A model generated the notes under the pieces. It was not told where the DNA came from. It made no database searches and was given only the letters and a program-made list of their open reading frames with translations. Position numbers and translations under genes: made by a program. DNA of 64,000 bases from Amoeboaphelidium protococcarum X5 (lineage: Eukaryota; Fungi; Aphelidiomycota), in assembly GCA_023515725.1 (NCBI GenBank), contig JALDTO010000192.1:186001-250000 (forward strand), in the 5' to 3' direction. Positions 697 through 56,326 of the stretch are shown in pieces; the first letter of the stretch is position 1, and each line of letters opens with the position of its first letter.

Positions 697-1215
697 TATA
701 GTCATCCTCTGTCCTGTCCTGTCTCTAATAATAGTAATGAGTGAATAAATATGCGCGAATTCGTATTTAATGCAGCTTTTGTTAATAAGCGAAATTATTC
801 TCTTTATACATCTGTTTCTGTAATCTATACTATGTATGGACAAGTCTGACCAATCAGTTAACTGCACTTGAATAAACGCGCGATTTTTAACAGGATATTT
901 AGTCCATGGATATATATGTACTGCTGGAGTAAATTGCACAAACAGACAGGTCGGATGATGAAACTTAAAACGACAAAACTCGCCTCCGTTTAAAGTCCTG
1001 TCCTTTTAGTCGTTTGTTCACTTTCTCCTTTTGCCGCATTTTCAACTCGCTGCTCTTTCCCTCTCGTTCTCGTTCTCTCATTCTTTCTCCCAATTCAGTG
1101 TGTGTTTCTCTCTCTCTCTCTCTCCCCGTTTTGTCCAAGAAGTAAAGTGGCAAGTTGCTCTTATACTTGAGAAAAAACATCTTTTTACTATTTGAATAAT
1201 CATTTTTAGATAGAT

Positions 1216-4062
1216 ATGAACTTCTTGTCCAGTCTGGTGAAAGCTGCTCCATCACCTGCGTAGTAAGAAGTGTCTCCACATGAAATTATTGAAAAGCTGT
1301 GTGACCGTCTGAGGACATCCACCATGATTGAGGACAAGCGTGCTGCCATTCTCAGTCTTAAAGGACTGTCTAGGTAGTATTAGCTGGAAGTTGGTACTTA
1401 GGCTACTTAATTACTACTGGAAATTCTGCATGATGAGTACTGTATGGAAGATGCGGAGATTGTAAAGTCTGTTCTGGACACTTTTATCAACTTGTGTTAG
1501 GGAGATTATCAAGAGAGCAGTGTTGTTAGCTCATTTAATACAGACACTGCTGGCTAGAGTTCATAACAAAATTTGGGTCTCTAGTTTAGTCAAATTTTAC
1601 TCAAAAACTGCGAAAATGTTCCTTTTATGATTAATACCTTACTGCAGGATTACTCGTTTCATGTCCAGTTTGCTCTGATTGAATTACTGCGGATTTTGGT
1701 GCGTAATGATTTGACTCTGTTCTAGAAGAATATCATTAATGGCGCCGGTTGCATTTCTCATATCATGAATCTGTTGAGTGATAGTAGAGAGGTGTTGAGA
1801 AATGAAGGTATTCTGTTGTTGGTAGACTTGACATCTCCATCATCACATGGATCTTTTGCAGACATTCAAAAGATTATTGCATTTGATAATGCATTCGAAT
1901 AATGTCTACATCTGGCTATTGAGGTTGAGGGTGGAATTTATGGCTAGGTGGTAGTTGAGGATTGTCTCTGCTTGATTTATAACTTGCTGAAAGACAACTC
2001 CAGTAATTAGAATTACTTCAGAGAGAGTGGTCTCATTCCGAAATTGTTGACTTTCTTCAGATATGATCTTTCAGTATTACCTGCAGGTGGTAAGTTGCCC
2101 AGTAGACTCACGTTGGGCACTCCTCCAAAGTTGACGCTGAATGGTGATGAAGAGTTTTCCGTTCAGCAGTGTCGCAATCTCAATAAAATGTTGGATGTAA
2201 TGGATCTGTTAGTGTTCAGTGGCTCTCAATCTGCATCATCGGGTATTGTAAATAATTAGGTGGTGTTTATTAATTGTGGCCTATGGTATCCATTTCTGAT
2301 GTTTGGGCTATTTGGACCGCCAGCTGATTAGATTTAAAGCGGATACGATATTGTCTGTCTATTGAGATCGAGGTGCCTGTATACTCTTGCTTACTCAATA
2401 CAAGAACTTCCTGCTGGGTAGTCACTAATCAATTGTATTGCTATCAAAAGTCAATAGCCTACAGAGATGCCTACCGCTCTACTCACATATTGCATGTAAA
2501 TGGCATTTCAGTCTACCCATGTAGATCTGCCACAATCTGTTGGTGATGACAGACTTCGTTCCAATTGTTAGCTTAGATTAAGATTTGGAGCGTTTGAACT
2601 TATAAAATCGTCAGTGGTTGGCAATAGTGATTTGATTCAAGTGTTGGTGAATTTTGTAAAGTTGGGAATTTAAAGTGGTGGTAGTGGAGGAAGCATTATT
2701 GGTGATAATGGCTTTGGTGATTTGCTGCTGGATTCTCTTCTTGATTATTAGTATGCTAGAAAGCGCAATGATATTTATCGTGTCTGGTTTGCCTCTTGTA
2801 TATTCTCTTTGCTTATCAGTAGTTCCCCAGAGAATAGAAATATCTGTCTATCTGCAAAGATCTCCAGTCCTAGTGATTTAATAGACGGGGAGAAGGATCT
2901 ATTCACATCCATAATTAATTGCGTGATGGTCTGCAGCAGAGACTCCAGTTCTGATTATCGTCTGCTCATTACGTACCTATCGATGCTATCTCTTTGCCTG
3001 GCAGATTCTTCTGAATGGTGCGGCAAGTTTATGAAAGAGTCGTCACGGTTTGCATTTCTGCTCGAGTAAATCCAGTCTCATCCATCACAGGTTGTATAAG
3101 GACTTTGTGCGTACTTGATTGGTCTTTTATTTGAGTACAATGATGGACAAGTAAAAACATTGGGCCGCGCAGAGATTTCTAATGTTGTAATCACCAGAGT
3201 CGGTGTGGAGTCATATTCGAGTAAAATGAACAGGCTCAGAGACGCTGTAGTGTCTTACTAGCCCATCTATGCTGCCAATAGAATCCCATCTGCAGTCTCT
3301 AATGAAGATGAACCTGTGCTATTTATTGAAGAATTCATTGAACAGTTCAAAAGCCACTCTGACTCTATTCAAAAGTCTGTAGTCAATCCGAAGTCTGTCA
3401 AGTTGAAGCAGCGGTAGTAAGAGGAATCGAAATAGCACGAGAATGCAATGCAGAGCTATAAAGTGTTAATCAGCGAGCAAGATTAGACTATTGCGTCGTT
3501 AAAAGCAGAAGTATCGCAGTTGAAATAATAGCTGAGTTCTAAGTAATAATAGATTTAACAGTAGTCATCACCCCAGAGTAATAATCATAAACAATTGGAG
3601 TAAATTGATATTGAAAAGCATCCAGTTATGATTGATCTGAGATAATAATTGTCTGAGGCGAATGAGTAATATTAATCTGTTAATTAGGAGATGGAGGATC
3701 TGCTTGTCTGTCTAGCAGAATAGGACGTGGAAATGAAGAAATTAAAGTAGAGATTGAAAGAATTGGGAGATAACGTAGTGGATGTTGAGAATAGCTTTGA
3801 TGGCGAGTAATTGGGTGTTACGGCGCAAGTACATAGTCTGGCTCTTAATGATGAATAAGAGTAATAAGACAAAAAAGGAGAAGAAGTACACAGAGCGCCT
3901 ATCGATATGCCATCACCTGGTGAATAAAAGTAAGAGATTGACAATGTCTTCAACAATTATCAACAATACAATGATAAGCCATTTGCCTTCGATTCTAATC
4001 CAGAGATCAAAGATGGCCTTACTGATATCTTTGATACCATAGAAGAACCATCATTATTGTGA
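1216..4062 (+). CDS. USO1: Vesicle tethering protein Uso1/p115
   Basis: N-terminal IEKLCDRLRTSTMIEDKRAAILSLKG, internal DSREVLRNEGILLL, C-terminal QEMEDLLVCLAEQD. One frame from ATG 1216 to TGA 4060-4062 with TAR=Gln. Confidence 0.92.
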
Positions 4063-14775: not shown

Positions 14776-14908
14776 TTTACTGATTTCACCTTGTTGTAGG
14801 TTTACACCAGATAGATTTACCGAGTAAAAAACTTATCAGAAATCTTTAAATACTTATCATTAGTCATATTTAATTAGATTGGGATCTGGATATTTTGTAT
14901 CAAGAGCA

Positions 14909-16702
14909 ATGTGGAGCAGAATTAAGCGTATGATTAGTGTAAATATTGTGGGAATGTTGCTCTGTATTGCGATTGCTGTGGTGTTTAGTTTGATTGAACC
15001 TTTAGATGGTCTAACTCATTCAGCCATGCGTCTTATGGGTATTTTTATATCAACCATAGTGGCTCTTATTATTGTGGATTATCCTATATCGATGGTCACC
15101 GGTCTTTCGCTGTGTATTTTGGCGCTCACAAATTCATTGCAATGTCAGAGTGTTGATGGCGCGATGATACTGGATTGCTCACAGTGTAATCCACAAATCT
15201 GTCACCATGATGCTCCAGAGTCTTAATTGCTGGCGGCTTTGCAAGGATTTAGTAATGATGTCAATTGGTTGGTATTTTGCGCCTTCCACATTGGCACTGC
15301 TGTAGAGTACTCGAATCTGGGCAAGCGTGTATCACTGCTATTGATGAAAGTGCTCGGTTCGTCTGTACTCGGTCTTGGCTATGCCGTGATGCTCTCTGAA
15401 CTTATACTGGCACCTTTTGTTCCCAGTAACACTGCCAGAGGTGGTGGTATTGTTCTTCCCATTGTATACTCTATAGCGACCACTCTGGGCTCATTCCCGG
15501 ATATTGAGAACAGATCCAAGGGTGGTGAGTTTTTGATACTGGTCGGCGCGCATGCCAATCTGATTAGTGCCTCTTTATATCCCACTGGAATGGCTGCGAA
15601 TCCCACAGTTAGTGTTAAAGCACGGCAAGTATTCGATATTGAGTTTGGCTACCTCCAGTGGGTTGGTGGTAGTCTGGTGCCTGGTCTGTTGTCTTCTCTC
15701 ATAGTTCCATATCTCTTATATAGGCTTTCATTCAAATCTGCATAATCAGTTTAATCATAATAAAGATAATCGATATAGTCAGCTAGCGGGGATAAATTTG
15801 GTAATCTTATTGGTCGATTGTCTAACAGGATAAAAAGTAAATTTGGTGTCGATCTAGGAGATAAAGATTATATTGCATTGCCAACTTCCACCTCGGCCTC
15901 TTCCAGCTTGCCGCAGTCTCAACAAGTTAGAAATAGGAGCTCAGAGGTGATTACAGATTTTCTATTAGATGACGAGACTTCAGAACAGTAAGAATTGGAA
16001 GACACTGCTCATAAATTTCAAACTCTTCGAGCATAAATCAATTCAGAGTTACAATCTCTTGGTCCACTGTCTATTAGGGAATGGAAATTGATATTTATAC
16101 TCGTGGCCATGTTGACTCTGTGGCTTACAAAGAACTATAATAGATTGGATACAACTCTGGTTGCGTTCATTGGACTCATGGTCATGTTGTTCATGAATGT
16201 CATCTCTTGGGATGATGTGATTAGGAATTACAAGAGTCTGGATACTCTCTTCTGGTTGGGTATTCTGATTATGATGGCAAATCAGTTATCCCTGGCCAAA
16301 GTATCGGATGTACTGGGAATATAGATTAGTCGTCAGATTTCTCAATTTGATATTCCGCCTATTGCAGCAACGATCATCCTTGCCACGATATATTTTTACT
16401 CAATGTACATGTTCTCATCTCTGACTGGACACATTCTGGCTTTTGTGGGGCCATTTATGAATGCTGGCAAGTTGTTGAATCCAGGTAGTCCATTCCTCAC
16501 CACTGCTCTACTCGCCTACTTTTCTACTCTCAGTGGATGTCTAACTAATTTCAGTAGTGGCCCTATTGTAATCTACTTCTCACAAGGCTACTGTAAAGGC
16601 AGACTTAGGTGGTTTGGTATTGGCTTGACTGTTAGTTTTGTGTATATTGTCGTCTACTTCTCTATTGGTCTTGCCTGGTGGAAAGTGATCGGTTGGTGGT
16701 GA
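14909..16702 (+). CDS. DASS-family di/tricarboxylate transporter, DiT1/CitT (2-oxoglutarate/malate translocator)-like
   Basis: LAPFVPSNTARGGGIVLPI, ASLYPTGMAANP, YMFSSLTGH, C-terminal IGLAWWKVIGWW. Four supplied ORFs join in one frame; no intron needed. Confidence 0.9.
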
Positions 16703-16714
16703 TACTCATTTACT

Positions 16715-16754
16715 AGATTGATTTTTTTTGTATCTATAAAAGTGTATACATCAT
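16715..16754 (+). repeat. Left copy of ~40-bp imperfect direct repeat bounding the integrase/protease insert
   Basis: agattgattttttttgtatctataaaagtgtatacatcat; matches 19524-19566. Confidence 0.8.
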
Positions 16755-16980
16755 ATATGCATGGTGATTTCAAACGTGTCAATGTTAATAGAGCCTCAAA
16801 GCAACAACTGACAACTTTAGCATTTTGAAACTGGATTCTTTTAGCCAAATAAATCAACACTGTGCGATGGGAGAGAAGACACTTCATTGGTAATGAATGA
16901 TTCAGTGCCCCATTTCCGTGCATCTATTCCTTCAAATAAATAATTTTTATCAGGAAAGATTATCTTTTTTGAAATATACC

Positions 16981-18004
16981 ATGATGGCAAGTGATAATCA
17001 AGTTCTAAATCAATTCTTTAATGATCCCAAGACTGGCTTTGTGGGTGCCGAAAAATTGTGGAGACGTGCAAAAGTCATCAACTCAAAGATTACCATGAAA
17101 CAGGTGAAGGAATTCCTCGCCCAGAATCCATTAAACCAAGTGTTTCAGAAGCCAAAGAATGCGAAGCTCACACCAAAGATTCATGGTAAGTTAGGCCATT
17201 ACCAGGCTGATTTAACCTTTATGACGAGATATCAGAGACAAAACTCCAACTATCACATCTTGCTAGTCGTGATTAACGTGAATACAAAGTATGCATATGT
17301 CGTAGCCCTGAAAGATAAAGCACAAGAAACCGTATTGAACGGATAGGACAAAATACACAGAAATCAATTAATGATGGGCGACCATTTAAAGTTCTTCAGA
17401 CGGATAATGGTAAAGAGTTCCAAAACAATCGCATTGCAAATTGGATGAATGAGCATAGCATAACATCACAATATTGTGAAAAGGATGATAAGAAGTGTCT
17501 AGGCGTAGCAGAGAGGTTCAATCGCACTATAAAACTCATGATTGAAAAGTATCTGACAAGTAAGAACACGAATAGATGGATTGATAAGTTGCAAGACTTT
17601 GTTCAAAACTACACTCATCTTTTCATAATAGCATACCCGAGCGGCTAGAAATGTATGATGAAGCAGAACTGATAAGGAAAAGCATTGCTCACAATAATCG
17701 TGTCACCAATTCTGTAATCAAACGAGGTGACTTTGTAAGGTTACTGAATAAACGAGGCGCATTTGAGAAAGAGGGTCAACTGAAAGTTTACGTTGTTGAA
17801 GAAGTGAGGTTGAATAGTGTGCGGGTAGAAAGCAAACATCAAAAGTTCAATTTGTTTGAAGTATTGAAGGGTTCCCCTCTAAGTCAAGACATTGACAACT
17901 CATTAATGCAGAAGCAAATTGACAGCTACAGAGCTGATAAACGTATACGCGAACGTGAAGGTATTGAGCCCGATAGAAGACAAAGTAAAAGATTACGAAA
18001 GTAA
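16981..18004 (+). pseudogene. rve/DDE integrase of Polinton/Maverick (c-integrase) type with two frameshifts
   Basis: FNDPKTGFVGAEKLW, YQADLTFM (D), LQTDNGKEF (D), AERFNRTIK (E), WIDKLQDFVQNY, GDFVRL..FEK. Frame changes near 17345-17365 and ~17611. Confidence 0.88.
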
Positions 18005-18053
18005 CGGATTTATTGACACCATTAAAACCAGTAGGAGAGGTATGCTATTAAAA

Positions 18054-19359
18054 TCAAATATCATTACAATGTCGTTGTTGGCAAACATAGGCAATAGCAG
18101 CAGCGTCTTCAGGAATTTGGCCAACAATACACAATTCCTCAACAGCATTCATCAACGGAGTCGCCATGGAGCAGTACGGCAAGTTTTTAGGTGCTCTTTC
18201 CTGATGCGTGAAGCCTCGACCGCGATGAATGGCAAACGGAATGAACTTGCAACCTCTACGAGCAAAGTACAAGCTTCCGCTATCCCCACCCTGGCAAAAT
18301 GCCTCGCCAGATGTCCAGACAACTTCAATCATATCAGTCCATCGTTGCCTTGTTTTCGAAAACTCCACAGAACTTGAGAGACTATGCAGATAACCAAGTG
18401 TCAATCCGGATGCATTGCCAAACTTGTAGACAGGCGTTCCCAATTCAAACACTGTGTGATTCGGTATCCGATTAATACTTTCATCCTCATCACCAATGCA
18501 AAATATCGAGTCGTGATCAACCGCATCCACCAATTCCACCGCAGCAGCATCAATAGAGTCAGTCTCAACCCTGAGTGCAAGAGTCTGAGGAACACAATGT
18601 GCGGCCGTTAATGCAAACACTTTCGAATTCACATGTAAGAATCCTCCAACGGTGCCATTACCAAAGGAATTCCCAAAGTGTTTGGTCGACTGCCCCCCCC
18701 CCCTGAGAACAATCAAGAGTAAAGTCTTGGCGCGGACCTCGATTAAAGCTGATTATTTCCAAAACAGATTCGGCAGTAAAATCTTTGCAACTCCAATTCT
18801 TGCGAAAAGCCTCCTCAAACTCCTGCTGATGGACATCAGAAGTCGCCAAGATCCGCCTGTGGCGCGTGCCGGACACTCTCCACGAGTGAACACCTACTTT
18901 GCGAAATATATCTTCAATAATCTTCGAGACACCAAGAATTGTGAATGCGTATGCTACTTCTTCAGCAGTCCAAGTAAGTTCGTTTGACATTGTTCGGCGG
19001 TTATTATCTACAATGTCTTCCAAACAAGACTTGATCTCCAGGCGGCTTCCTTTTGCAATGTAGCCTGGTTGCAAAAGACACAACTTCGACTTTCGATATG
19101 AAGAAATCTTTTCGATGTTAGACGGCGACTCGAACAGTACGTCAAGTCCATGATCGATAATCTTGATCATAAACCTGCGGAATGGCATCGGCACAAAGTA
19201 TCCGTCCAATTTCAGCAGTGCCTTCTCTCTGGCGAGCTTCACGGGTTCGGTGTTCAGCCAAGCAAAGAATCGGTCGGATAGTAAAGTGTTATTTATTTCG
19301 GTACCATCTTCCGTTGAAGCCACAGATAAGCTATTCAGACCACCGGTAATCGCATCCAT
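18054..19359 (-). pseudogene. Trypsin-like (S1/PA clan) serine protease with unknown N-terminal domain, split by a frameshift at a G11 tract
   Basis: GTVGGF, LTAAHCV (His), IDAAAV (Asp), FCQGGDSGSL (Ser). The two supplied ORFs overlap at the C11 run, 18693-18703. Confidence 0.75.
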
Positions 19360-19523
19360 TTCTGTTAGAATAAGCAAAACAGAATAGATAAAAGTCAATT
19401 AAATAGTATACGTGCCGTGTGGCTGAGCTCTATTGATCAGAGATCAAGAAACAAAGTGGCGCAGCAAATTTCTCCTTATCCGAGACGACGGTCAAGGTTA
19501 GCGACAGAACATAAAACCCAACA

Positions 19524-19566
19524 AGATTGATAGTTTTTTTGTATTTATAAAAAGTGTATGCATCAT
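19524..19566 (+). repeat. Right copy of ~40-bp imperfect direct repeat
   Basis: agattgatagtttttttgtatttataaaaagtgtatgcatcat; matches 16715-16754. Confidence 0.8.
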
Positions 19567-19631: not shown

Positions 19632-21355
19632 TCAATACTGTTTCTACTCGGCTGATGGTGGAATAAACATGGATTGGATCCATGCGAGTATAGACAATAT
19701 AGATAATGCGACAAACACCAGGTGATGATTGAATGGATACGACATGCCACTCTTTAATGAGTACTGATACATGATACCACCAAGCACGGGACCAATCGCT
19801 CTAACAAGACTCGCCAAACTCTGAGATATTCCATTGATTAGACCAAGACTGCCCAGAGTCGCCGAGTTGTTAATCATAACCATGATGGTGGTGAAAGAGA
19901 AGCTACCAGCAGCAACTCTAACCATGTGATGCACAGCAGTCAATGACCATAGCATGATATTACCAGACTGTCCTCCGTACTTCTACTGCGCATGCTACTT
20001 GGCATCTGTAAGGAAGGCTGTCACAAATATAACTGCAGATTGTACCAGCAAAGAGTCTCTAAACAACAATCTTCTTCTACGACGAGCCTCAGCCCAAGGA
20101 TACACAAAAATCTGGAATAATAGCAACAAGACACCAGCCATGGCCATGGATATACCAACCTCACTACTGGACCAGCCAAGTCCATTATATTGCTCATCCG
20201 TCTGGCAGTATAGGATATAAACTTCCTGGAATATGATTGTAATAAACGCCAGCAATATATACGCCATGATTGTCATTACCGGAGCATAGTTGGCTCCAGA
20301 ACAACACCATTTATATTCACCAGATTTAACTTCTTATTGTTGCAGCAATTGGGATTGAATTAAAACGTCTTCATCATCATCTGCATTCACATTAGATATT
20401 GCAGAGTGAAAGAGTCCATCAGTAGCTTCCTTACTGTCTTCATAACCAAGTAGCCGTTATGATTCGCTTTATAAGTACTCAGCCTCTGTATCACTGACAT
20501 TATCTTGCTAAGCATCAATTCTCCGGACTGAATTAGAAGCTTATGCCATTCTGTTTAGAGATTAAGCAATACTGAGCGATGTGCGCGGGTTAATCAACAC
20601 TTCATCATCACCATAGCCAACGGGGATATTGAGCCCTTGTCGTCGTCGTCGTCTATTGTGAAGCGACTCTTTGAAATACACCAGACCGATTATGAATCCA
20701 ACTAGCGACACTGTAGCAGACACTAGACACGGTAATAGATAGGGATAGGCGGCAAAAAGAGAACTACCTCCAAATACGCGCGGATACTTTGCAGCAGGTT
20801 CAGCCAGGAGACCACCAATGGCAGAGCCGAGGAGTGAGCCGATGCCAAACAAAAGGCCAAATATACTAAATCCTATAGTCTGCGTACTATCATCAGAGAT
20901 CTCACCCAGGACACACTTGGCCACACCGATATTTCCATTCAAGAATCCACAAGCAAAGCGACATACCAGCGCCCATGTAAATGACTTTGACACGCCAAAA
21001 AGGATCGATGTCAGAACGTTACCAAACAGGCCGAATAGGATAACCGGCTTCCGACCTATCCTATTACTCAGCTAGCCCCAGAATATAGATGTGAGGAATT
21101 GAGCGAACGGGAACGCTGCAGCTATAAATCCAGCATAGAATCCAACATCTCGCACATCTTCACTCAGATTGAAACTTTTGATCATGGGCACCATAAATCT
21201 ACAAATTGTGATTACACACGTATACTGTATTCCTTTAGATGTCATCAAGAACTCCTGCAATAAGATACTTACGGATACAAGATTGTAAGCGAGAGTGGCT
21301 CCGAGAATATGACGCAAGAAAGCACCACCAGCTATTTTATAAAATCCCTATTCAT
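19632..21355 (-). CDS. MFS transporter, ZIF-like/YCR023C family; intron 21199-21272
   Basis: FSEPLSLTILYP|FMVPMI, VGFYAGFI, LSNRIGRKPVIL, LNGNIGVAK, LVRAIGPVLGG. Confidence 0.9.
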
Positions 21356-24118: not shown

Positions 24119-24601
24119 CCCTCTCTATACAGTATTGTGATTCGATTAGCTTTACAGCAGTTAAATTGGAAAGAAGCGTTACAATTGGCGAAAGAGAAGA
24201 TTAACGGGCTCTAAAATTGCCAAAAGTTGATTATCACATTGCAGGGGGAAATTATGCTCCAGATGAACTGGTGCTCATCCACAGGATGAAAGCATGTCAA
24301 TATAAGTGATTATAAGGAAATCGCGGCGATCTTCTAAGAGCTATCTACGGCGATAAGTGAAGCTGATTGTTAAGGTGAGGATTAATTCAAAGCGTCAACT
24401 GGGTGAGTGTATGGATTTCTCGAAATATTAAAGCTATAGCTACGTACTACAGTATGAAATGTCGCGGAAATGCATGCATCAAACAAGCGTGGGCCGATTT
24501 GCATAAACACTTGTTTATATACTAGTTAGCGTAACGTATCGCGGTCGACGAAAATAATTACGGTGGTGACAAGCAGCTATTTGCAACGTGAAAAATGAAG
24601 A

Positions 24602-27600
24602 TGAAAGGTGAAAACAAGAGAGACAGCACTGTGTTGGTAGTAATTATTTTACTGATTGATTTTTTATTCATTGCTCTAGCACTGAACAGCGCTTTCGATT
24701 TATATTGTAGTACAGTAGTAGCCATGAAATGCGGCCAATGGATTCAGAATTGTCCAGAGAGATGAGGTGGAGGAGGTGGAGGAGGAGGAGCTCTTGTTAA
24801 ATGTGTTGACTAGATGGAGACTGACCATACCATTAGAAACTTTAAGAAATCATAACACAAAACTCCAGAGGGGACAATTCATGAATGTGATGAGAACCAC
24901 AGCAGCAAAGCAATTCAGACTACCAGTGTAGGGGGAAACTCTTGCCAGAGGACTCGATCAACTCTTGACTATTGACTACAGAGCAGATACGGGGGGCCTC
25001 GGCAACTTTCGAATGGAACTTCTATATATTCTATATTCTATGAGATGTGACTGCTGCGCCTCCAATGAGATGACTATATATACAAATGACATGAGACTAC
25101 GGAGGACGCAGAAAACTCTTGCAATGACGCCTATGATCTAGCTACGGCGCCATGTACAAAGGATGATGATGATGACATGCAGCCAAAGGAGCCTATGGAT
25201 GGGGACTACGGCACCAGTGGCATTGAGATGAGGAACTACTCTTGCAGACTACGCCTATGATCTAGCTACGGCGCATCTGCAAAGGATCATGATGATGATG
25301 TGAAGCCAAACGAGCCTATGACAATAAACTACGGCCCGATGGCAGTGGGATGAGGAACTACTCTTGCAAATGACGCCTTGATTGACAGACTACGACGCCA
25401 TTTGCAAACTATGACAAGCAGCCGCCAGAGGAGTCTAAGAATTTTCACTGCGACTCCAGCGGCAAATACACAAGACGAGATGACTCTATTCTATCCAACG
25501 CAACTAGCCAGTCCAACGAGAGAGAGAGATATATATATATATGTAGAGGCAGGACCGGCCAAGATGCGCACAGAGAGTGGATAGAACAGAGATAGAGAGA
25601 GGACAACCACAACACAGTATGCCTTGTATTGCAATTGTCCAGAGAGGGAGACTTACGGAGAGGAAACGGAGACAAAGACAGGTGCAGATTTTTAGCCTAG
25701 GACCATGATTGAAGTCCAGATGATCAATGAGATGAGGCAGCACCACATATTTTATAGTCTTGTCAGCTTCCACCAGCTCCAATATAATTTTACTTGGCAT
25801 TGGCATTACGAGAACAATGATTGAATTTTTTTTCATTTTCCTGCCAATGCCAAGGCGGTGCGCGGGTCAGGCATACCAGTTACTAGCTACCATTGCATTT
25901 GTAGTACCAACCAGGCCAAGCCAACCAGACGAAGATTACTTATGGACATTCAAAGAGTGAGAGAGAGAGAGAGTCCAGCGGTTGGCGAGGCAGAGTTGGC
26001 AGATGAATTATTATTATTATTATTATTTATGGCAATTAGCTATCTCAGAGACCCGCGCACCAGAAGATACCAGCTATAACCTATGACGGTTATAGCATTT
26101 TGATTATGAACCCAGCTCTTTGCTGGGCAGACTTTTCTTTACTGGCCATACCAGACCAACACCACCACCCCCTCTTTTCCAACTCCATGTGGGCCATCAT
26201 GGCCCACTCCCAGTCACCAAATCACCATCTTCACGGCCAAAGACGGCCAGGTCCAGCCCAAGATGACACTGGACAGACTTGTTCGCAGCCTTCTATACCA
26301 CGACGCCAAAGACCAATACCCACTGGCCAGCTGCAGGTCCAACAGAACGACAACACAACCTCTGGTGTCGTCGTGACACAAGCCAGCACTAATGGACCAG
26401 CACAAGCTCCTTCATCCAGAAAGGGACCGAGAGGAAAGAGACCGCCAGAGATACGACTTTGACTAGGCGAAGAGGCAGTAAACAAGCAGAGAACAATTAA
26501 TTTCTAGAAGCAAAGAGCAGAGGACTCCTTGCTGAGATCTAATAAGAACAGCCCAACAAAAATGAGGGCATTATTATAGAGAGCCAATCGCAGCCAACTA
26601 ACAGCTGCGAGGTTGACCAAGTTCTTTTTTGAAGCGCCAACAATTAGACGCCATGCTACCGAGAGCGTTCTATACTTTAAAGCCATATTTTCGGCTAATA
26701 ACCTGGACTTTGCAACCTCAATCCTCATAACGCCAACTAAATACTCACAAACTTAGAAGCTGATGGTCTGATAGCATGGAAACACAACCTCTGGTGCTTC
26801 CATAGCACAAGCCAGCACTACAGACCAGCACAAGCTCCTCCGACCAGCTTCTTGACCAGCGGACGAGACTCCCAGAAGTGAGATCTTTGACAAGGTAGTA
26901 GAGGTTCAATCAGGACTGTAATGACAACTTTTCATTTGATTTACTCATTTGCACAGAGCAGAGGACTCTGTGTTGCTTTTTTTATAATCACCTCATCCAT
27001 TAGTGCAAGGATGGGTGCTTTAGATATGACGACATCAATTCTTATTAAGTTAATATATAGGTGAATCACCACGTTCTTTTAAGGATTCTAGCAATATTTT
27101 AGGATACTTTAACTCCAGTATTACTGTTGGGCAGTAGACAGTTCAATGCTTATCGCCAGCACAATCCGCACTCATAAACGCAGCAGATGCAGTTTTTTCA
27201 TTACAACACAGACGTCATACAAGACAACAATGACAATTACATATCTTCAGGCGACTAACACGCAGAGAGAGATTCTATTCTATCTAGTACAGAGTAAGAG
27301 CCAGTCAGAGAAATAAACGATATGTGACTTTTTTCTCCAAATCGGTGTTAACAACAGGAATTAAAGAACCAGCATAACTTGAGTTATTGCGTAGAGTTCC
27401 ATGTTCAATAAGAAGGGGTGTATGGTCAGCAGACACACCAAGCAAAGTCTGATTATCCTTAGTAAAATAGCAGCGTTTTCAGCTTGTAAACAATGAGCCA
27501 GAGAGACATTTCCCAATTGAGCTTTATCAACCAGCAGCAAACCAGAAGACGATATCAATTGACTCTACAAGCAGTTGTAGTACTGCGGCTCAATGACCAG

Positions 27601-29062
27601 TCAGCAGTTTCAAGTCAATGACCATTCACAAAAGGACAGTAGTTCTCTGACGAATACAAGCATCAAATGAGACCATAGTTCAGGACTCACCAAGTTGGTA
27701 CTGCATATAGCATGAACCTTGTTAAAGAAAAGCAAACAACAACAATTACAACTTCACAGACACCCAAAACCTTGTGAGAGCAAAGCAAACACAGTCGACC
27801 CCAAAGTCATGTTCCGATATCACTAATAAAGAAGAGCGCAAAACCCATGGAGCCAGCCTCTTCTATTGCTTTTGTATAGTAAACAGCTACAACCAATTAT
27901 GAATTGAAGACACAGCCAGTACCTTGTCATCGAAGCATTCTTGATAAGTCAAAGTAGCATGAACCTACACACATAGAACTACATAAAATGAATAAAAGAG
28001 CTAAATCTGTTAAATATATACATACCGGATTAGAGACAATGACCATGAGAGTAGCTTTGAGAGGTCAGCCACAGATGGATAAAGAGAGAGAGAGATGAGC
28101 CTTGACAGTATCTTGTGACTAAGAGAAGTTCCAGCAAAGAGGACAGCGATTAAACACAAGCTCGACATCATGGGCCATAGTAGAGGAGCAGCATTCTTCA
28201 CCAGTAAGGATCCGGAGGATTGTCCAGAGACCATCATCATAGAGCTGGAACGAGCGAGCAGGAGACGGATTGTTTCAGGTGCAGAGTAGAGGAGACAGAC
28301 AGCCAAACTGAGCAGATAGCAAGCGAGCACCAGAGCCATCACTCAAGCAAGTAGCTAGGACACCATACTGGCATATCGGATGAGATAAACGCATAGCGAA
28401 CATATGAGTGTAATAATCGATTGTTATCATAAGAGAAGAAGAGAGTGTGATATGGGACAGTGGGAATGTTTGATTCTTCCCCCACACTTTGTTTCAGATC
28501 TGAAACGTGGCTTGAGTGAAACGGGGACCACCAAAAGGCAACCGGGTCAGTTCTTGATCAATTTCTTTGGGAATAAGCTCATCTGCCGTTTCAGAAAACG
28601 ATCTATCGATTGGTACTAATATTATATGTACTCGAGTTTGGTGAGTTATATTAAGTAAGCTATAGGATTGAGTGGTTGTCCGGATTAGGAAGCTCGCGCG
28701 CGCTCCGTCGCTGAAACGAAACCGGTCTGGACCGAGGGCCGATATCGAACAATGCGGCCGCCAGAGTAAAGGAAAGTGCACAATATAAAACTGGTAGTCA
28801 GTGAGGACTTAGTACTGTATTATCGCTGATATCAATGGTATATCTGTAACTTTTTATTCCCAAACATTGGTATTCCTGTTAGTTTGAAATGTAATCTAAT
28901 AGGCCAACCTTCACCTTCCAAAAACTATTTTCAGGAAGCCAGACCGCACCCTCTTGTACACATACTTGTATTTTTACTAACCTTATAGCAGTTTTATATA
29001 GTTTTTATCTGTCACTTGTATTATTCACAGCTTCTCCCAGCTGTATTATGCAACTATGAACT
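24602..29062 (+). repeat. Left arm of ~4.4-kb inverted repeat
   Basis: Reverse complement aligns along its length to 39108-43566; mirrored ORFs in the supplied track (e.g. 25378-25584+ = 42586-42792-). Ends approximate. Confidence 0.95.
25095..25410 (+). repeat. ~125-bp degenerate tandem repeat (~2.5 units) inside the IR arm, mirrored at ~42760-43075
   Basis: Recurring actcttgca..acgcctatgatctagctacggcgc..caaaggat(gat)n..gccaaa.gagcctatg units. Confidence 0.75.
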
Positions 29063-39107: not shown

Positions 39108-42100
39108 CAGATCATAGTTGTAAAATACAGCTGGGAGAAGTTGTGAATAATACACGTGACAGATACAAACTATATAATACTGCTATAACGTTAGTAAAAC
39201 TACAAGTATGTGTACAAGAGTGTGCGGTCTGGCTTCCTGAAAATAGTTTTTGGAAGGTGAAGGTTGGCCTATTAGAATATATTTCATGCTTACAGGAATG
39301 ATAGTGTTTGGGAATAAAAAGTTACAGATGTACCATTAATATCAGCGATATTACAGTAACAAGTCCTTACTGACTACCAGTTTTTTATTGTGCACTTTCC
39401 TTTACTTTGGCGGCCGCATTGTTCGATATCGGCCCTCGGTCTAGAACGGGCTCGTTTCCGCGACGGAGCGCGCGCGAGCTTCCTAATCCGGACAACCACT
39501 CACTCCTATAGCCTAGCCAATAGAACTCACCAAGCTGGAGTGCATATAATATTAGTACCAATCGATAGATCGTTTTCTGAAACGGCAGATGAGCTTATTC
39601 CCAAAGAAATTGATCAAGAACTGACCCGGTTGCCATTTGGTGGTCCCCGTTTCACTCAAGCCACGTTTCAGATCTGAAACAAAGTGTGGGGGAAGAATCA
39701 AACATTCCCACTGTCCCATATCACACTCTCTTCTTCTCTTATGATAACAATCGATTATTACACTCTTATGTTCGCTATGCGTTTATCTCATCCGATATGC
39801 CAGTATAGTGTCCTATCTACTTGCTTGAGTGATGGTTCTGGTGCTCGCTTGCTATCTGCTCAGTTTGGCTGTCTGTCTCCTCTCTCTGCACCTGAAACAA
39901 TCCGTCTCCTGCTCGCTCGTTCCAGCTCTATGATGATGGTCTCTGGACAATCCTCCGGATCCTTACTGGTGAAGAATGCTGCTCCTCTACTGTTGTCCAT
40001 GATGTCGAGCTGGTGTTTAATCGCTGTCCTCTTTGCTTGTCCCTCTCTCAATCACAAGATACTGTCAAGGCTCATCTCTCTCTCTTTCCATCTGTGAATG
40101 ACCTCTCAAAGCTACTCTCATGGTCATTGTCTCTAATCCGGTATGTATATATTTAACAGATTAAGCTCGTTTTATTCATTTTATGAAGTTCTATGTGTGT
40201 AGGTTCATGCTACTTTGACTTATCAAGAATGCTTCGATGACAAGGTTCTGGCTGTGTCTCCAACTCATAATTGGTTGTAGCTGTTTTACTATACAAAAGC
40301 AATAGAAGAGGCTGGCTCCATGGGTTTTGCGCTCTTCTTTATTAGTGATATCGCAACATGACTTTGGTGTCGACTGTGTTTGCTTTGCTCTCACAAGGCT
40401 TTGGGTGTCTGTGAAGTTGTAATTGTTGTTGTTTGCTTTTCTTTAACAAGGTTCATGCTATATACAGTACCAACTTGGTGAGTCCTGAACTATGGTCTCA
40501 TTTGATGCTCGTATTCGGCAGAGAACTACTGCCCTTTTGTGAATGGTCATTGACTTGAAACTGCTTACTGGTCATTGAGCCGCAGTACTACAACTGCTTG
40601 TAGAGTCAATTGATATCGTCTTCTGGTTTGCTGCTGGTTGATAAAGCTCAATTGGGAAATGTCTCTATGGCTCATTGTTTACAAGCTGAAATCGCTGCTA
40701 TTTTACTAAGGATAATCAGACTTTGCTTGGTCTGTCTGCTGACCATACACCCCTTCTTATTGAACATGGAACTCTACGCAATAACTCAAGTTATGCTGGT
40801 TCTTTAATTCCTGTTGTTAACACCGATTTGGAGAAAAAAGTCTCATATCGTTTATCTCTCTGACTGACTCTTACTCTATACTAGATAGAATAGAATCTCT
40901 CTCTGCGTCTTAGTCGCCTGAAGACTTGTAATTGTCATTATTGTCTTGTATGACGTCTGTGTTGTAATGAAAAAACTACATCTGCTGCCTCTCATGAGTG
41001 CGTATTGTGCTGGCGATAAGCATTGAACTGTCTAATGCCCAACAGTAATACTGGAGTTAAAGTATCCTAAAATATTGCTAGAATCCTTAAAAGAACGTGG
41101 TGATTCACCTATATATTAACTTAATAAGAATTGATGTCGTCATATCTAAAGCACCCATCCTTACACTAATGGATGAGGTGATTATAAAAAAAGCAACACA
41201 GAGTCCTCTGCTCTGTGCAAATGAGTAAATTAAATGAAAAGTTGTCTTTACAGTCCTGATTGAACCTCTACTACCTTGTCAATGATCTCACTTCTGGGAG
41301 TCTCGTCCGCTGGTCAAGAAGCTGGTCGGAGGAGCTTGTGCTGGTCTGTAGTGCTGGCTTGTGCTATGGAAGCACCAGAGGTTGTGTTTCCATGCTATCA
41401 GACCATCAGCTTCTAAGTTTGTGAGTATTAAGTTGGCGTTATAGGGATTGAGGTTGCAAAGTCCAGGATATTAGCCGAAAATATGGCTTTAAAAGTATAG
41501 AAAGATCCTGGTAGCATGACGTCTAATTGTTGGCGCTTCAAAAAAGAATTTGGTCAGTCTCGCCGCTGTTAGTTGGCTGCGATTGGCTCTCTATAAAAAT
41601 GCCCTCATTTTGTTGGGCTGTTCTTATTAGATCTCAGCAAGGAGTCCTCTGCTCTTTGCTTCTAGAAATTGATTGTTCTCTGCTTGTTTGCTGCCTCTTC
41701 GCCTAGTCAAAGTTGTATCTCTGGCGGTCTCTTTCCTCTCGGTCTCTGGCTGGATGAAGGAGCTTGTGCTGGTCCTCTAGTGCTGGCTTGTGTCACGACG
41801 ACACCAGAGGTTGTGTTGTCGTTCTATTGGACCTGCAGCTGGCCAGTGGGTATTGGTCTTTGGCGTCGTGGTATAGAAGGCTGCGAACAAGTCTGTCCAG
41901 TGTCATCTTGGGCTGGACCTGGCCGTCTTTGGCCGTGAAGAAGGTGATTTGGTGATTGGGAGTGGGCCATCATGGCCCACATGGAGTTGGAAAAGAGGGG
42001 GTGGTGGTGTTGGTCTGGTATGGCCAGTATAGAAAAGTCTGCCCAGCAAAAAGCTGGGTTCATAATCAATTTGCTATAACCGTCATAGGTTATAGCTGGT

Positions 42101-43566
42101 ATCATCTGGTGCGCGGGTCTCTGAGATAGCTAATTGCCATAAATAATAATAATAATAATTCATCTGCCAACTCTGCCTCGCCAACCGCTGGACTCTCTCT
42201 CTCTCTCTCTCACTCTTTGAATGTTCATAAGTAATCTTCGTCTGGTTGGCTTGGCCGAGGTGGAACAATAAATGCAATGGTAGCTAGTAACTGGTATGCC
42301 TGACCCGCGCACCGCCTTGGCATTGGCAGGAAAATGAAAAAAAATTCAATCATTGTTCTCGTAATGCCAATGCCAAGTAAAATTATATTGGAGCTGGTGG
42401 AAGCTGACAAGACTATAAAATATGTGGTGCTGCCTCATCTCATTGATCATCTGGACTTCAATCATGGTCCTAGGCTAAAAATCTGCACCTGTCTTTGTCT
42501 CCGTTTCCTCTCCGTAAGTCTCCCTCTCTGGACAATTGCAATACAAGGCATACTGTGTTGTGGTTGTCCTCTCTCTATCTCTGTTCTATCCACTCTCTGT
42601 GCGCATCTTGGCCGGTCCTGCCTCTACATATATATATATATCTCTCTCTCTCGTTGGACTGGCTAGTTGCGTTGGATAGAATAGAGTCATCTCGTCTTGT
42701 GTATTTGCCGCTGGAGTCGCAGTGAAAATTCTTAGACTCCTCTGGCGGCTGCTTGTCATAGTTTGCAAATGGCGTCGTAGTCTGTCAATCAAGGCGTCAT
42801 TTGCAAGAGTAGTTCCTCATCCCACTGCCATCGGGCCGTAGTTTATTGTCATAGGCTCGTTTGGCTTCACATCATCATCATGATCCTTTGCAGATGCGCC
42901 GTAGCTAGATCATAGGCGTAGTCTGCAAGAGTAGTTCCTCATCTCAATGCCACTGGTGCCGTAGTCCCCATCCATAGGCTCCTTTGGCTGCATGTCATCA
43001 TCATCATCCTTTGTACATGGCGCCGTAGCTAGATCATAGGCGTCATTGCAAGAGTTTTCTGCGTCCTCCGTAGTCTCATGTCATTTGTATATATAGTCAT
43101 CTCATTGGAGGCGCAGCAGTCACATCTCATAGAATATAGAATATATAGAAGTTCCATTCGAAAGTTGCCGAGGCCCCCCGTATCTGCTCTGTAGTCAATA
43201 GTCAAGAGTTGATCGAGTCCTCTGGCAAGAGTTTCCCCCTACACTGGTAGTCTGAATTGCTTTGCTGCTGTGGTTCTCATCACATTCATGAATTGTCCCC
43301 TCTGGAGTTTTGTGTTATGATTTCTTAAAGTTTCTAATGGTATGGTCAGTCTCCATCTAGTCAACACATTTAACAAGAGCTCCTCCTCCTCCACCTCCTC
43401 CACCTCATCTCTCTGGACAATTCTGAATCCATTGGCCGCATTTCATGGCTACTACTGTACTACAATATAAATCGAAAGTGCTGTTCAGTGCTAGAGCAAT
43501 GAATAAAAAATCAATCAGTAAAATAATTACTACCAACACAGTGATGTCTCTTGTTTTCACTTTTCA
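39108..43566 (-). repeat. Right arm of ~4.4-kb inverted repeat
   Basis: Reverse complement of 24602-29062; ends approximate. Confidence 0.95.
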
Positions 43567-43726
43567 CTTTCAAGTCGCAGTTAATCGCGACTTCATTCCA
43601 ATCTAACCACAGTGAAGCGTTTGCGCGGCGATTTCGCGCTAATTCCCTCTTTATCACTCTTTGATCAGTCTTGCACATACCACCATTTTATGAGCTAGAG
43701 TCACGTTAAAGGTGTTGCAGGTAACG

Positions 43727-54726: not shown

Positions 54727-55338
54727 ATGAAAATGATGATGAACATTGGTGCATTGATGGTCTCTATGGCCCTGTTTCAAGTTGCTGCCCAAGAGAATTG
54801 TCTAGATTTGAGTCAATCTGTGTGCGGTAAGTACGGAATCAATGTGAAGTTGCCTACTCTGATGTATAAGGATATTGCTGCGTTCAACAAGCCATATGAA
54901 GTGCCGGACATTCCAAGCAATGCAACTGCTACTCCTGATAATCCTTGCCCAAATCTTGATCCATCCGGGTTGAAGGACAACACTGTGCATTTTATGTGTT
55001 TAACGCTGACTCCATTAACATATAGTTTATCTGCTCTGTTACCGAATGGAACTGACGCATTGAGCAAGTGCAACGGCGGCAAGGTAGAGTATCCTTAAGA
55101 GCTGTTGATGTGTAAAAGTAGTTGCGAATCCTACTTCAAGGCAACAGTTGATTACGCTGCGAAGAGAGGCTGTTCTGCTTTGGGCACCGTAGTAAATGCC
55201 ACCAGCATTGAAGAATCTTGCAAATTGTATCCAACCAGTAACTGTAAGGCTGTCACATTTTCCTCTGCCTTGTCTCAGGCGAAGGTTAGTGTTGTGTCTA
55301 TTGTGATTTTGGCTGTAGTAAGTTACTTGATGATTTGA
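54727..55338 (+). CDS. Secreted Cys-rich, probably GPI/TM-anchored surface protein (paralog 1)
   Basis: Signal peptide, CLDLSQSVCG, CKSSCES, KRGC, hydrophobic C-terminus. Confidence 0.8.
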
Positions 55339-55723: not shown

Positions 55724-56326
55724 ATGTTTACCTCTTTGGTTATAGCTGTGGGAGCCTGCATCGCGTTGTCTGCAGTATCTGCTACTGGTGGCTGCATTGA
55801 TTTGAGCCAGTCTGTTTGTGGTCAGTATGGAATCAATGTGAAGCTACCTACAACTGTCTATCCTAATATCAGCACTTTTAATGCAGTATTTGGTCAGCCT
55901 GATGACAATGGTCCTGCAACAAGAGTTCAGAATGGTGATTTGTGTCCTAACATTGATCTATCTGATTTTAACGATCAAGCTTTGCAATATCAGTGCCTGA
56001 CATTCACCCCAACCACTTTTGATAACATTAATTAGACTGAAGCGCGTGCACAGTGCAATGGTGGCAATGCCGAGTATCCACAAGAGTTGATAATGTGTAA
56101 AAGCAGTTGCGAATCTTACGCTAAGGCAACTGTTGAATACGCGACCAAGAGAGGCTGCTCTGAGATTAGCAAGAAGCTGAATTCCACCTCTATCGCGGCG
56201 GCTTGTCAGGCACTTCCTACTACAGGTTGTAACGCGATCACCTTTACATCGTCTGCATTGAATTAGGCTCAAGTTGGTATTGTCTCAATCTTGATGATTG
56301 CTTTTGGTAGTTATCTGGTGATTTGA
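55724..56326 (+). CDS. Secreted Cys-rich surface protein (paralog 2)
   Basis: Signal peptide, CIDLSQSVCG, CKSSCES, KRGC, hydrophobic C-terminus. Confidence 0.8.

Follow-up and report, generated by a model that had tools for sequence, protein, structure and literature searches.

A broken Polinton-type fragment facing a serine protease gene in the aphelid Amoeboaphelidium protococcarum, and its likely polymerase-integrase parent family

Polintons, also called Mavericks (Polintoviricetes), and those Polinton-like viruses that have both a protein-primed DNA polymerase (pPolB) and an rve integrase reside in eukaryotic chromosomes, where a pPolB of family PF03175 is followed by an integrase lacking a zinc finger (PMC11161782, PMC7805220). 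The same arrangement can be recognized in the DNA studied here, a window of 64,000 nt from the aphelid Amoeboaphelidium protococcarum X5 (contig JALDTO010000192.1, positions 186,001 to 250,000 of the forward strand; coordinates below are those of the window). In this window, a 2.8-kb insert separates two convergent host transporter genes and contains a polymerase tail, a frameshifted integrase and, facing it, a frameshifted serine protease gene. We consider it probable that the insert, found on some chromosomes only, represents a damaged part of a Polinton-type element, and that a compact polymerase-integrase unit was likely its parent, one that probably came from a host with the standard genetic code and likely swaps the gene behind its integrase. 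The locus itself would then be a dead fragment, probably without function, of a Polinton lineage that has a cargo slot and appears to be undescribed; the protease is a probable cargo gene.

Of the features by which Polintons are recognized, a pPolB and a DDE rve integrase without an N-terminal zinc finger are present. Polintons further encode a double jelly-roll capsid, a minor capsid protein, an A32 ATPase and a cysteine protease, and measure 15–40 kb. Unlike Polintons, however, the close relatives found in this study show no capsid, A32 ATPase or cysteine protease in loci of 1.1–5.4 kb and have a variable convergent gene behind the integrase, and this copy has neither terminal inverted repeats (TIRs) nor a target-site duplication (TSD). 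Nematode Mavericks carry WASP serine-protease and KRMA kinase cargo, and they share with the present family the Polinton type, a variable cargo region with a serine protease and movement between species (10.1101/2022.07.12.499685); here, in contrast, the family lives in aphelids and Amoeboradix, and the protease is of a NAL1/alpha-lytic-like kind whose N-terminal half is mostly helical. Small units with a retroviral-type integrase and TG...CA ends are also known as Ginger1 and Ginger2/Tdd, and Ginger1 carries protease domains, but Gingers have an N-terminal zinc finger, TIRs of 40–270 bp and TSDs of 4–5 bp; they lack a polymerase, and their cysteine proteases are fused to the transposase (PMC2836005). 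A Ginger DNA transposon does not fit this locus, since the H2C2 motif of the N-terminal zinc finger is absent from a 26-row integrase alignment, no TIR of 40–270 bp was found and a pPolB is linked. Transpovirons and linear pPolB plasmids are likewise capsid-less replicons related to Polintons, but transpovirons encode a pPolB fused to a helicase, and an rve integrase is not among their defining genes (PMC11161782), whereas the family here keeps a full exonuclease-containing pPolB together with an integrase. Polinton-like viruses have already been reported in chytrids and in Glomus/Rhizophagus (PMC7805220, 10.64898/2026.06.19.733378). The present family was not described in the literature searched, including the available portions of PMC5751038, 10.1101/2025.06.16.659975, PMC12957317 and PMC11342252; the aphelid genome paper, a Crinkler survey or supplements may mention it.

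A preliminary description of this locus, made from the sequence alone, had recognized a Polinton/Maverick-type DDE integrase with all three catalytic residues and two frameshifts, and this holds. The integrase pseudogene (16981..18004, plus strand) retains the catalytic codons for D (17209), D (17403) and E (17511), and in comparison with an intact 347-aa integrase of A. occidentale (P0046), to which its pieces are 81–93% identical, it is broken by two frameshifts (near 17357 and 17612) and two 3-codon gaps. One integrase relative (P0006) matches PF00665 with an E value of 1.8e-11. The same description had pPolB missing, which needs correction: directly 5' of the integrase, a frameshifted remnant comprising the last ~60 codons of a pPolB occupies 16755..16943 (plus strand). 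It matches the pPolBs of two related loci, L001 and L002, in tblastn (E 3e-8 to 4e-8) and is identical to L002 at 155 of 232 nt (67%); a full-length pPolB relative (P0094, 1053 aa) matches PF03175 at E 4e-47. In the sequencing runs X4 and X8, contigs run left past 16755 into sequence that, judged by eye, fits the preceding pPolB residues. It follows that the copy in the window is cut inside pPolB, exactly at the end of a host duplication described below.

Searching with the integrase returned 39 proteins that are 59–96% identical, the best named match, at 96%, being labeled A. protococcarum; they include full-length copies in A. occidentale and one in Amoeboradix gromovi. Overall, relatives at 53–96% identity occur in A. 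occidentale, Amoeboradix and metagenomes. A metagenome scan yielded 19 related integrase loci, 1.1–5.4 kb long. Where at least 400 bp of upstream sequence was available (12 loci), a pPolB lies directly upstream of the integrase on the same strand in nine; seven of these are independent, because L011–L013 are 98–99% identical. Amoeboradix has both genes on one contig (NODE_156), and an A. occidentale pPolB sits on a contig of 112 kb. Among 85 proteins returned for pPolB, a group at 60–72% identity, to which these Amoeboradix and A. occidentale proteins belong, stands apart from the remainder at 47% or less. From these matches and the loci, 48 sequences were picked and a FastTree phylogeny was built on their last 620 residues; 13 family members form one clade with a support of 1.0, nested in the pPolBs of Polinton-like viruses, including that of the viral contig L022. 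The integrase tree likewise has an aphelid and Amoeboradix group (support 0.98). The nearest viral relatives are Polinton-like viruses, in keeping with the Polinton ancestry first proposed. Prokaryote genome contigs gave no integrase in 46 candidate stretches and no pPolB in 41.

Two structures recur among the relatives. Long imperfect palindromes stand directly 3' of the integrase stop in L001 (2079-2263), L002 (2327-2515) and L005 (1234-1417), each of ~185 bp, and in L019 (405-950, 545 bp); this copy has none. Such palindromes might act as terminators or be scars left by cargo exchange. A MITE-like segment (resembling a miniature inverted-repeat transposable element) of ~150 bp, with an inverted repeat, lies between pPolB and integrase in L003 (250-402), L011 (3414-3566), L012 (2690-2842) and L013 (4117-4270), and also matches parts of L005 and L010.

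The parent could instead be an ordinary Polinton virus of 15–20 kb, of which the insert is the right-hand fragment; the capsid, ATPase and cysteine-protease genes left of pPolB would have been lost by truncation, and the serine protease would be cargo. Three IMG/VR contigs (L020–L022) agree with this, sharing the pPolB-then-integrase order and encoding, upstream or nearby, an A32 ATPase (L020, L021), a C5/C48-like protease (L021, L022) and a protein of ~580–600 aa without a significant Pfam match, whose low-confidence model (pLDDT 40) best matches jelly-roll capsids. In their own right, these contigs form a divergent group of Polinton-like viruses with a capsid-like protein. In addition, family contigs of 12–15 kb exist, and there are precedents for overlooked capsids (PMC7805220) and for serine-protease cargo (10.1101/2022.07.12.499685). 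However, the nearest IMG/VR relatives have integrases only 33–43% identical, and the scans gave none above 43%. Ten morphogenesis-module proteins of the nearest viruses produced no tblastn match at E 0.1 in the 19 loci or the window, while as a control they detect their own counterparts at E 1e-20 or better. Moreover, the ~800 bp before pPolB in L013 contain no open reading frame (ORF) of at least 110 aa, and L019 has cargo there: its order is integrase, cargo, ~1 kb and pPolB start, with no morphogenesis gene between. On these grounds, an ordinary Polinton virus appears unlikely as the parent, though it is a serious contender. Loci devoid of morphogenesis genes would also be expected from a split or helper-dependent Polinton, in which one unit bears pPolB and integrase while the capsid genes reside on another that shares its termini; no such second unit was seen among the loci, and we consider this arrangement improbable.

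Returning to the compact polymerase-integrase unit with a cargo slot, the region behind the integrase is where its copies differ. A convergent minus-strand ORF lies downstream of the integrase in all five loci that have at least 700 bp there; L012 and L018 share one, and the others differ. P-loop NTPases are found in L018 and L019, and ORFs without an assigned kind in the others. In L019 the cargo (1036-3386) comprises a P-loop NTPase (AAA_22, E 2e-6) and, behind it, a domain of 186 aa, presumably resembling effectors that combine an NTPase with a nuclease. In the window, the integrase and the protease converge as well, their stops 49 bp apart (estimated earlier as ~50 bp). Between them, a short tract 3' of the integrase (18005..18046) is common to other copies, with similarity extending to ~18046 as judged by eye, and probably marks the cargo junction; loose ends of X1 and X9 contigs past 18029 continue into other sequence, and it is here that copies diverge.

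Linkage of protease and integrase homologues was the check proposed for a minimal integrase-plus-protease element, and no protease homologue occurs in any of the 19 related integrase loci. The protease is consequently at most one of several cargoes and not a fixed partner. The same absence, together with free-standing-looking homologues in A. occidentale and a Thecamoeba transcriptome, would suit a protease that was a neighbor gene in the donor, dragged along by rearrangement, or an integrase and protease forming an autonomous two-gene transposon. The dragged-along gene is at odds with the protease stop abutting the point where copies diverge, with its sharing the convergent position of the other downstream ORFs and with its foreign codon use; the two-gene transposon is contradicted by the pPolB remnant and the absence of TIRs. 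Either version is very improbable. A minimal integrase-plus-protease element is not supported: the unit includes pPolB, and the copy is a left-truncated, decayed fragment without termini. The other possibility raised in the preliminary description, that a piece of an endogenous virus-like element had been captured, came close to the mark.

The protease pseudogene (18054..19359, minus strand), a likely cargo gene of the NAL1/S64-like trypsin-fold serine type, spans 434 codons from 19359 to 18054, including those for His (18599), Asp (18551) and Ser (18281). The intact trypsin triad reported earlier for a ~430-aa protein is therefore present as codons, but the intact protein is ruled out by a run of 11 C at 18693-18703, upstream of the triad, which shifts the reading frame of the whole catalytic half. 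Over 17841-19409, a contig of run X1 shows zero differences from the window and carries the same C run, so the frameshift is not only an assembly slip; two relatives from metagenomes, P0002 and P0220, keep the frame here, and P0003 has a different break. An intron at 19411-19362 (GT...CTAAC-AG) was considered and rejected, since the motif matches, in reverse complement, the end of a 161-bp repeat and the upstream frame is closed.

A word-indexed search found three close homologues of the protease and a profile search 15, including A. occidentale MP638_003591 (45% identity) and a protein of a Thecamoeba transcriptome (25%). The His, Asp and Ser motifs are conserved when the homologues are aligned. 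For an intact homologue (P0224), the predicted model (pLDDT 75) had rice NAL1 as its best Foldseek match (E 4e-7), and a wide fold search gave alpha-lytic-type proteases at Z 17.4 (5mrt_B, root-mean-square deviation 3.0 over 169 residues) and NAL1 at Z 15.2, in both cases for residues 226-471 only. By way of these homologues and the predicted model, the protein can be placed in the clan PA trypsin fold, with a His-Asp-Ser triad and a chymotrypsin-like fold. It shares its best structural matches and the triad motifs with rice NAL1 and peptidase S64-like proteases, but identity is just 13–20%, Pfam matches (Trypsin_2, Nal1_C) are weak and below cut-off, and the N-terminal half, which has no assigned fold, gave no match in a Pfam scan. 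Crinkler-type effectors are defined by an N-terminal header domain, and the Crinkler Pfam had no match in the protease or in seven scanned downstream ORFs. That the protease acts as an effector is a guess.

Evidence for foreign origin comes from codon usage. The host genes of the window are open only with TAA and TAG read as Gln (genetic code 6), as has been reported for A. protococcarum (PMC5304391). TAA and TAG make up 251 of the 436 Gln codons in ten host ORFs, compared with 1 of 35 in the insert and 0 of 13 in the protease alone (Fisher p 2e-11), which indicates that the insert is foreign. To judge by their codons, the integrase and protease look recently derived from a standard-code organism. 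We take A. occidentale and Amoeboradix to use the standard code, which fits the intact proteins listed for them. Under the host code, the TAG at 17344 and the TAA stop of the integrase would both be Gln here, and readthrough of that stop adds four residues. A standard-code element could still be read in this host, since TAA stops add few residues before the next TGA. The family probably moves between fungus-like parasites of different genetic codes.

That the element is mobile and foreign, as initially supposed, is also borne out by its patchy presence. Seven sequencing runs from four studies (X1, X4, X5, X6, X8, X9 and X10) were compared, and empty alleles were found in five, as joints skipping ~2.8 kb in X5, X8 and X9 and as equivalent loose ends in X6 and X10; the empty site was not listed for X1 or X4. 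Both filled and empty forms occur in X5, X6 and X8, and the left junction (16722-17006) is absent from X9 and X10. Separately, X1 has two alleles of the flanking host genes, with 37 differences in 405 positions (15480-15884) and 22 in 272 (20184-20455), as expected of a hybrid-like genome.

The flanking genes are a transporter of the DASS (sodium:sulfate symporter) family on the left (14864..16702, plus strand; PF00939, E 1.7e-97; open only under code 6), which ends at 16702, and an MFS transporter on the right (19632..21347, minus strand; PF07690, E 5e-30; code 6), which ends at 19632. Inside these, the insert is bordered by a direct repeat of 43–46 bp, a host intergenic segment whose left copy (16712..16754) is 87% identical over 46 columns to 19521-19566 and whose right copy (19524..19566) constitutes the right junction. 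The repeat scored 59, beyond chance, as none of 1946 random window pairs exceeded 33, and the borders first assigned to the element fall within it. Empty alleles hold a single copy, so the repeats are not mini-LTRs (long terminal repeats).

Between the protease and the right junction lies a multicopy repeat of 161 bp (19363..19523) with TG...CA ends, recognized from its ends, flanks and read depth. It starts just 3 bp away from the start codon of the protease, and its clean CA end forms the right junction. It is single-copy in the window, and in X1, X5, X8 and X9 it has varied neighbors on both sides and a high summed depth; in X8 it also adjoins an integrase tail. With TG...CA ends and many copies it resembles a solo LTR, although no target duplication of 4–6 bp flanks this copy and no gag-pol element that could be its parent was seen. 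An exact search for its end gave 0 matches in viral contigs and 0 in metagenome contigs. It is not favored as the TIR of the element, as it lacks a left-end partner and its summed depth, which is not equivalent to copy number, is unlike that of the integrase across the four runs. An 8-bp inverted match around the integrase was also rejected as a TIR, its left arm lying inside the pPolB coding sequence. Long TIRs and a 5–7-bp target duplication of the Polinton type were not found at this truncated copy, and the parent termini lie beyond the sequences examined. In X4, X6 and X10, other element copies are interrupted at 16841 and at 17007; the two interrupting sequences differ but both end in CCAACA, as does the 161-bp repeat, which suggests that LTR-type elements insert into element copies.

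Because it lacks termini, this copy is presumably not a normal two-ended integration; a blunt left fusion with a long host duplication is not what the two-ended integrase reaction would leave. One-ended retroviral integration can leave long duplications. In the route we envisage, a separate LTR-like repeat would first have inserted beside the protease start, and the segment would most likely have reached the site by recombination or one-ended insertion at this 161-bp repeat. Repair would then have joined the other end inside pPolB, duplicating 43 bp of host DNA, and the integrase and protease would have decayed after arrival. The parent, in turn, would replicate by protein priming and insert by means of its rve integrase, as is thought for Polintons, and would carry one or two convergent cargo genes, a NAL1-like protease here and P-loop NTPases and other ORFs elsewhere.

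Several points weigh against the compact parent and its cargo slot. A complete element was not seen, and only L011 (78 bp), L013 (~800 bp) and L019 extend upstream of the pPolB start; with so few and such short loci reaching past it, capsid genes may lie in the unsampled arm. In Phytophthora infestans, a Polinton once considered capsid-less turned out to encode a divergent capsid (PMC7805220). No pPolB lies upstream in three of the 12 informative loci (L014–L016), and the integrase clade has a support of just 0.80. Apart from the missing linkage noted above, the protease stands beside an integrase only in alleles of this species and on one metagenome contig of 5742 bp, the latter inferred from equal size alone, and in A. 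occidentale the locus tag of the homologue MP638_003591 does not neighbor those observed for integrases or pPolBs. ORFs downstream in the relatives could be host genes at insertion sites. X9, without the left junction, still has a protease contig at 99% identity; this could be a second site or a different truncation. The arrival route is itself an inference.

Taking these points together, the chance that the parent family has lost its capsid module is close to even, if slightly short of it. L019 hints, as a single case, at a unit of ~8 kb if it represents a tandem or circular join. More tentatively, and as a reading less likely than not, we propose that a Polinton-like virus lineage shed its capsid to become a self-synthesizing transposon of ~8 kb (pPolB, integrase and an exchangeable cargo slot), which would carry effector-like genes from one freshwater microbial eukaryote to another, aphelids and Amoeboradix included, and would have crossed from standard-code hosts into one where TAA and TAG encode Gln.

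Elsewhere in the window, a 4.5-kb segment occurs twice in inverted orientation (24596-29062 and 39109-43572, 96.6% identical), with internal repeats of ~123 bp and five ORF pieces that have no Pfam match above cut-off; it is probably another decayed mobile element. Two adjacent paralogous small ORFs (54805-55177 and 55799-56162) are 81–85% alike in patches.

The value of this locus lies in the element family that it exposes. The existence of purely capsid-less Polinton transposons is unsettled, and at least one earlier case was overturned (PMC7805220). The present family is young, occurs in multiple copies and includes intact integrases from an aphelid in culture, so existing assemblies can settle the capsid-less question. 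If our proposal is true, the family would represent a route for gene exchange among parasites of algae and a natural experiment on how mobile elements fare in a host that uses another genetic code.
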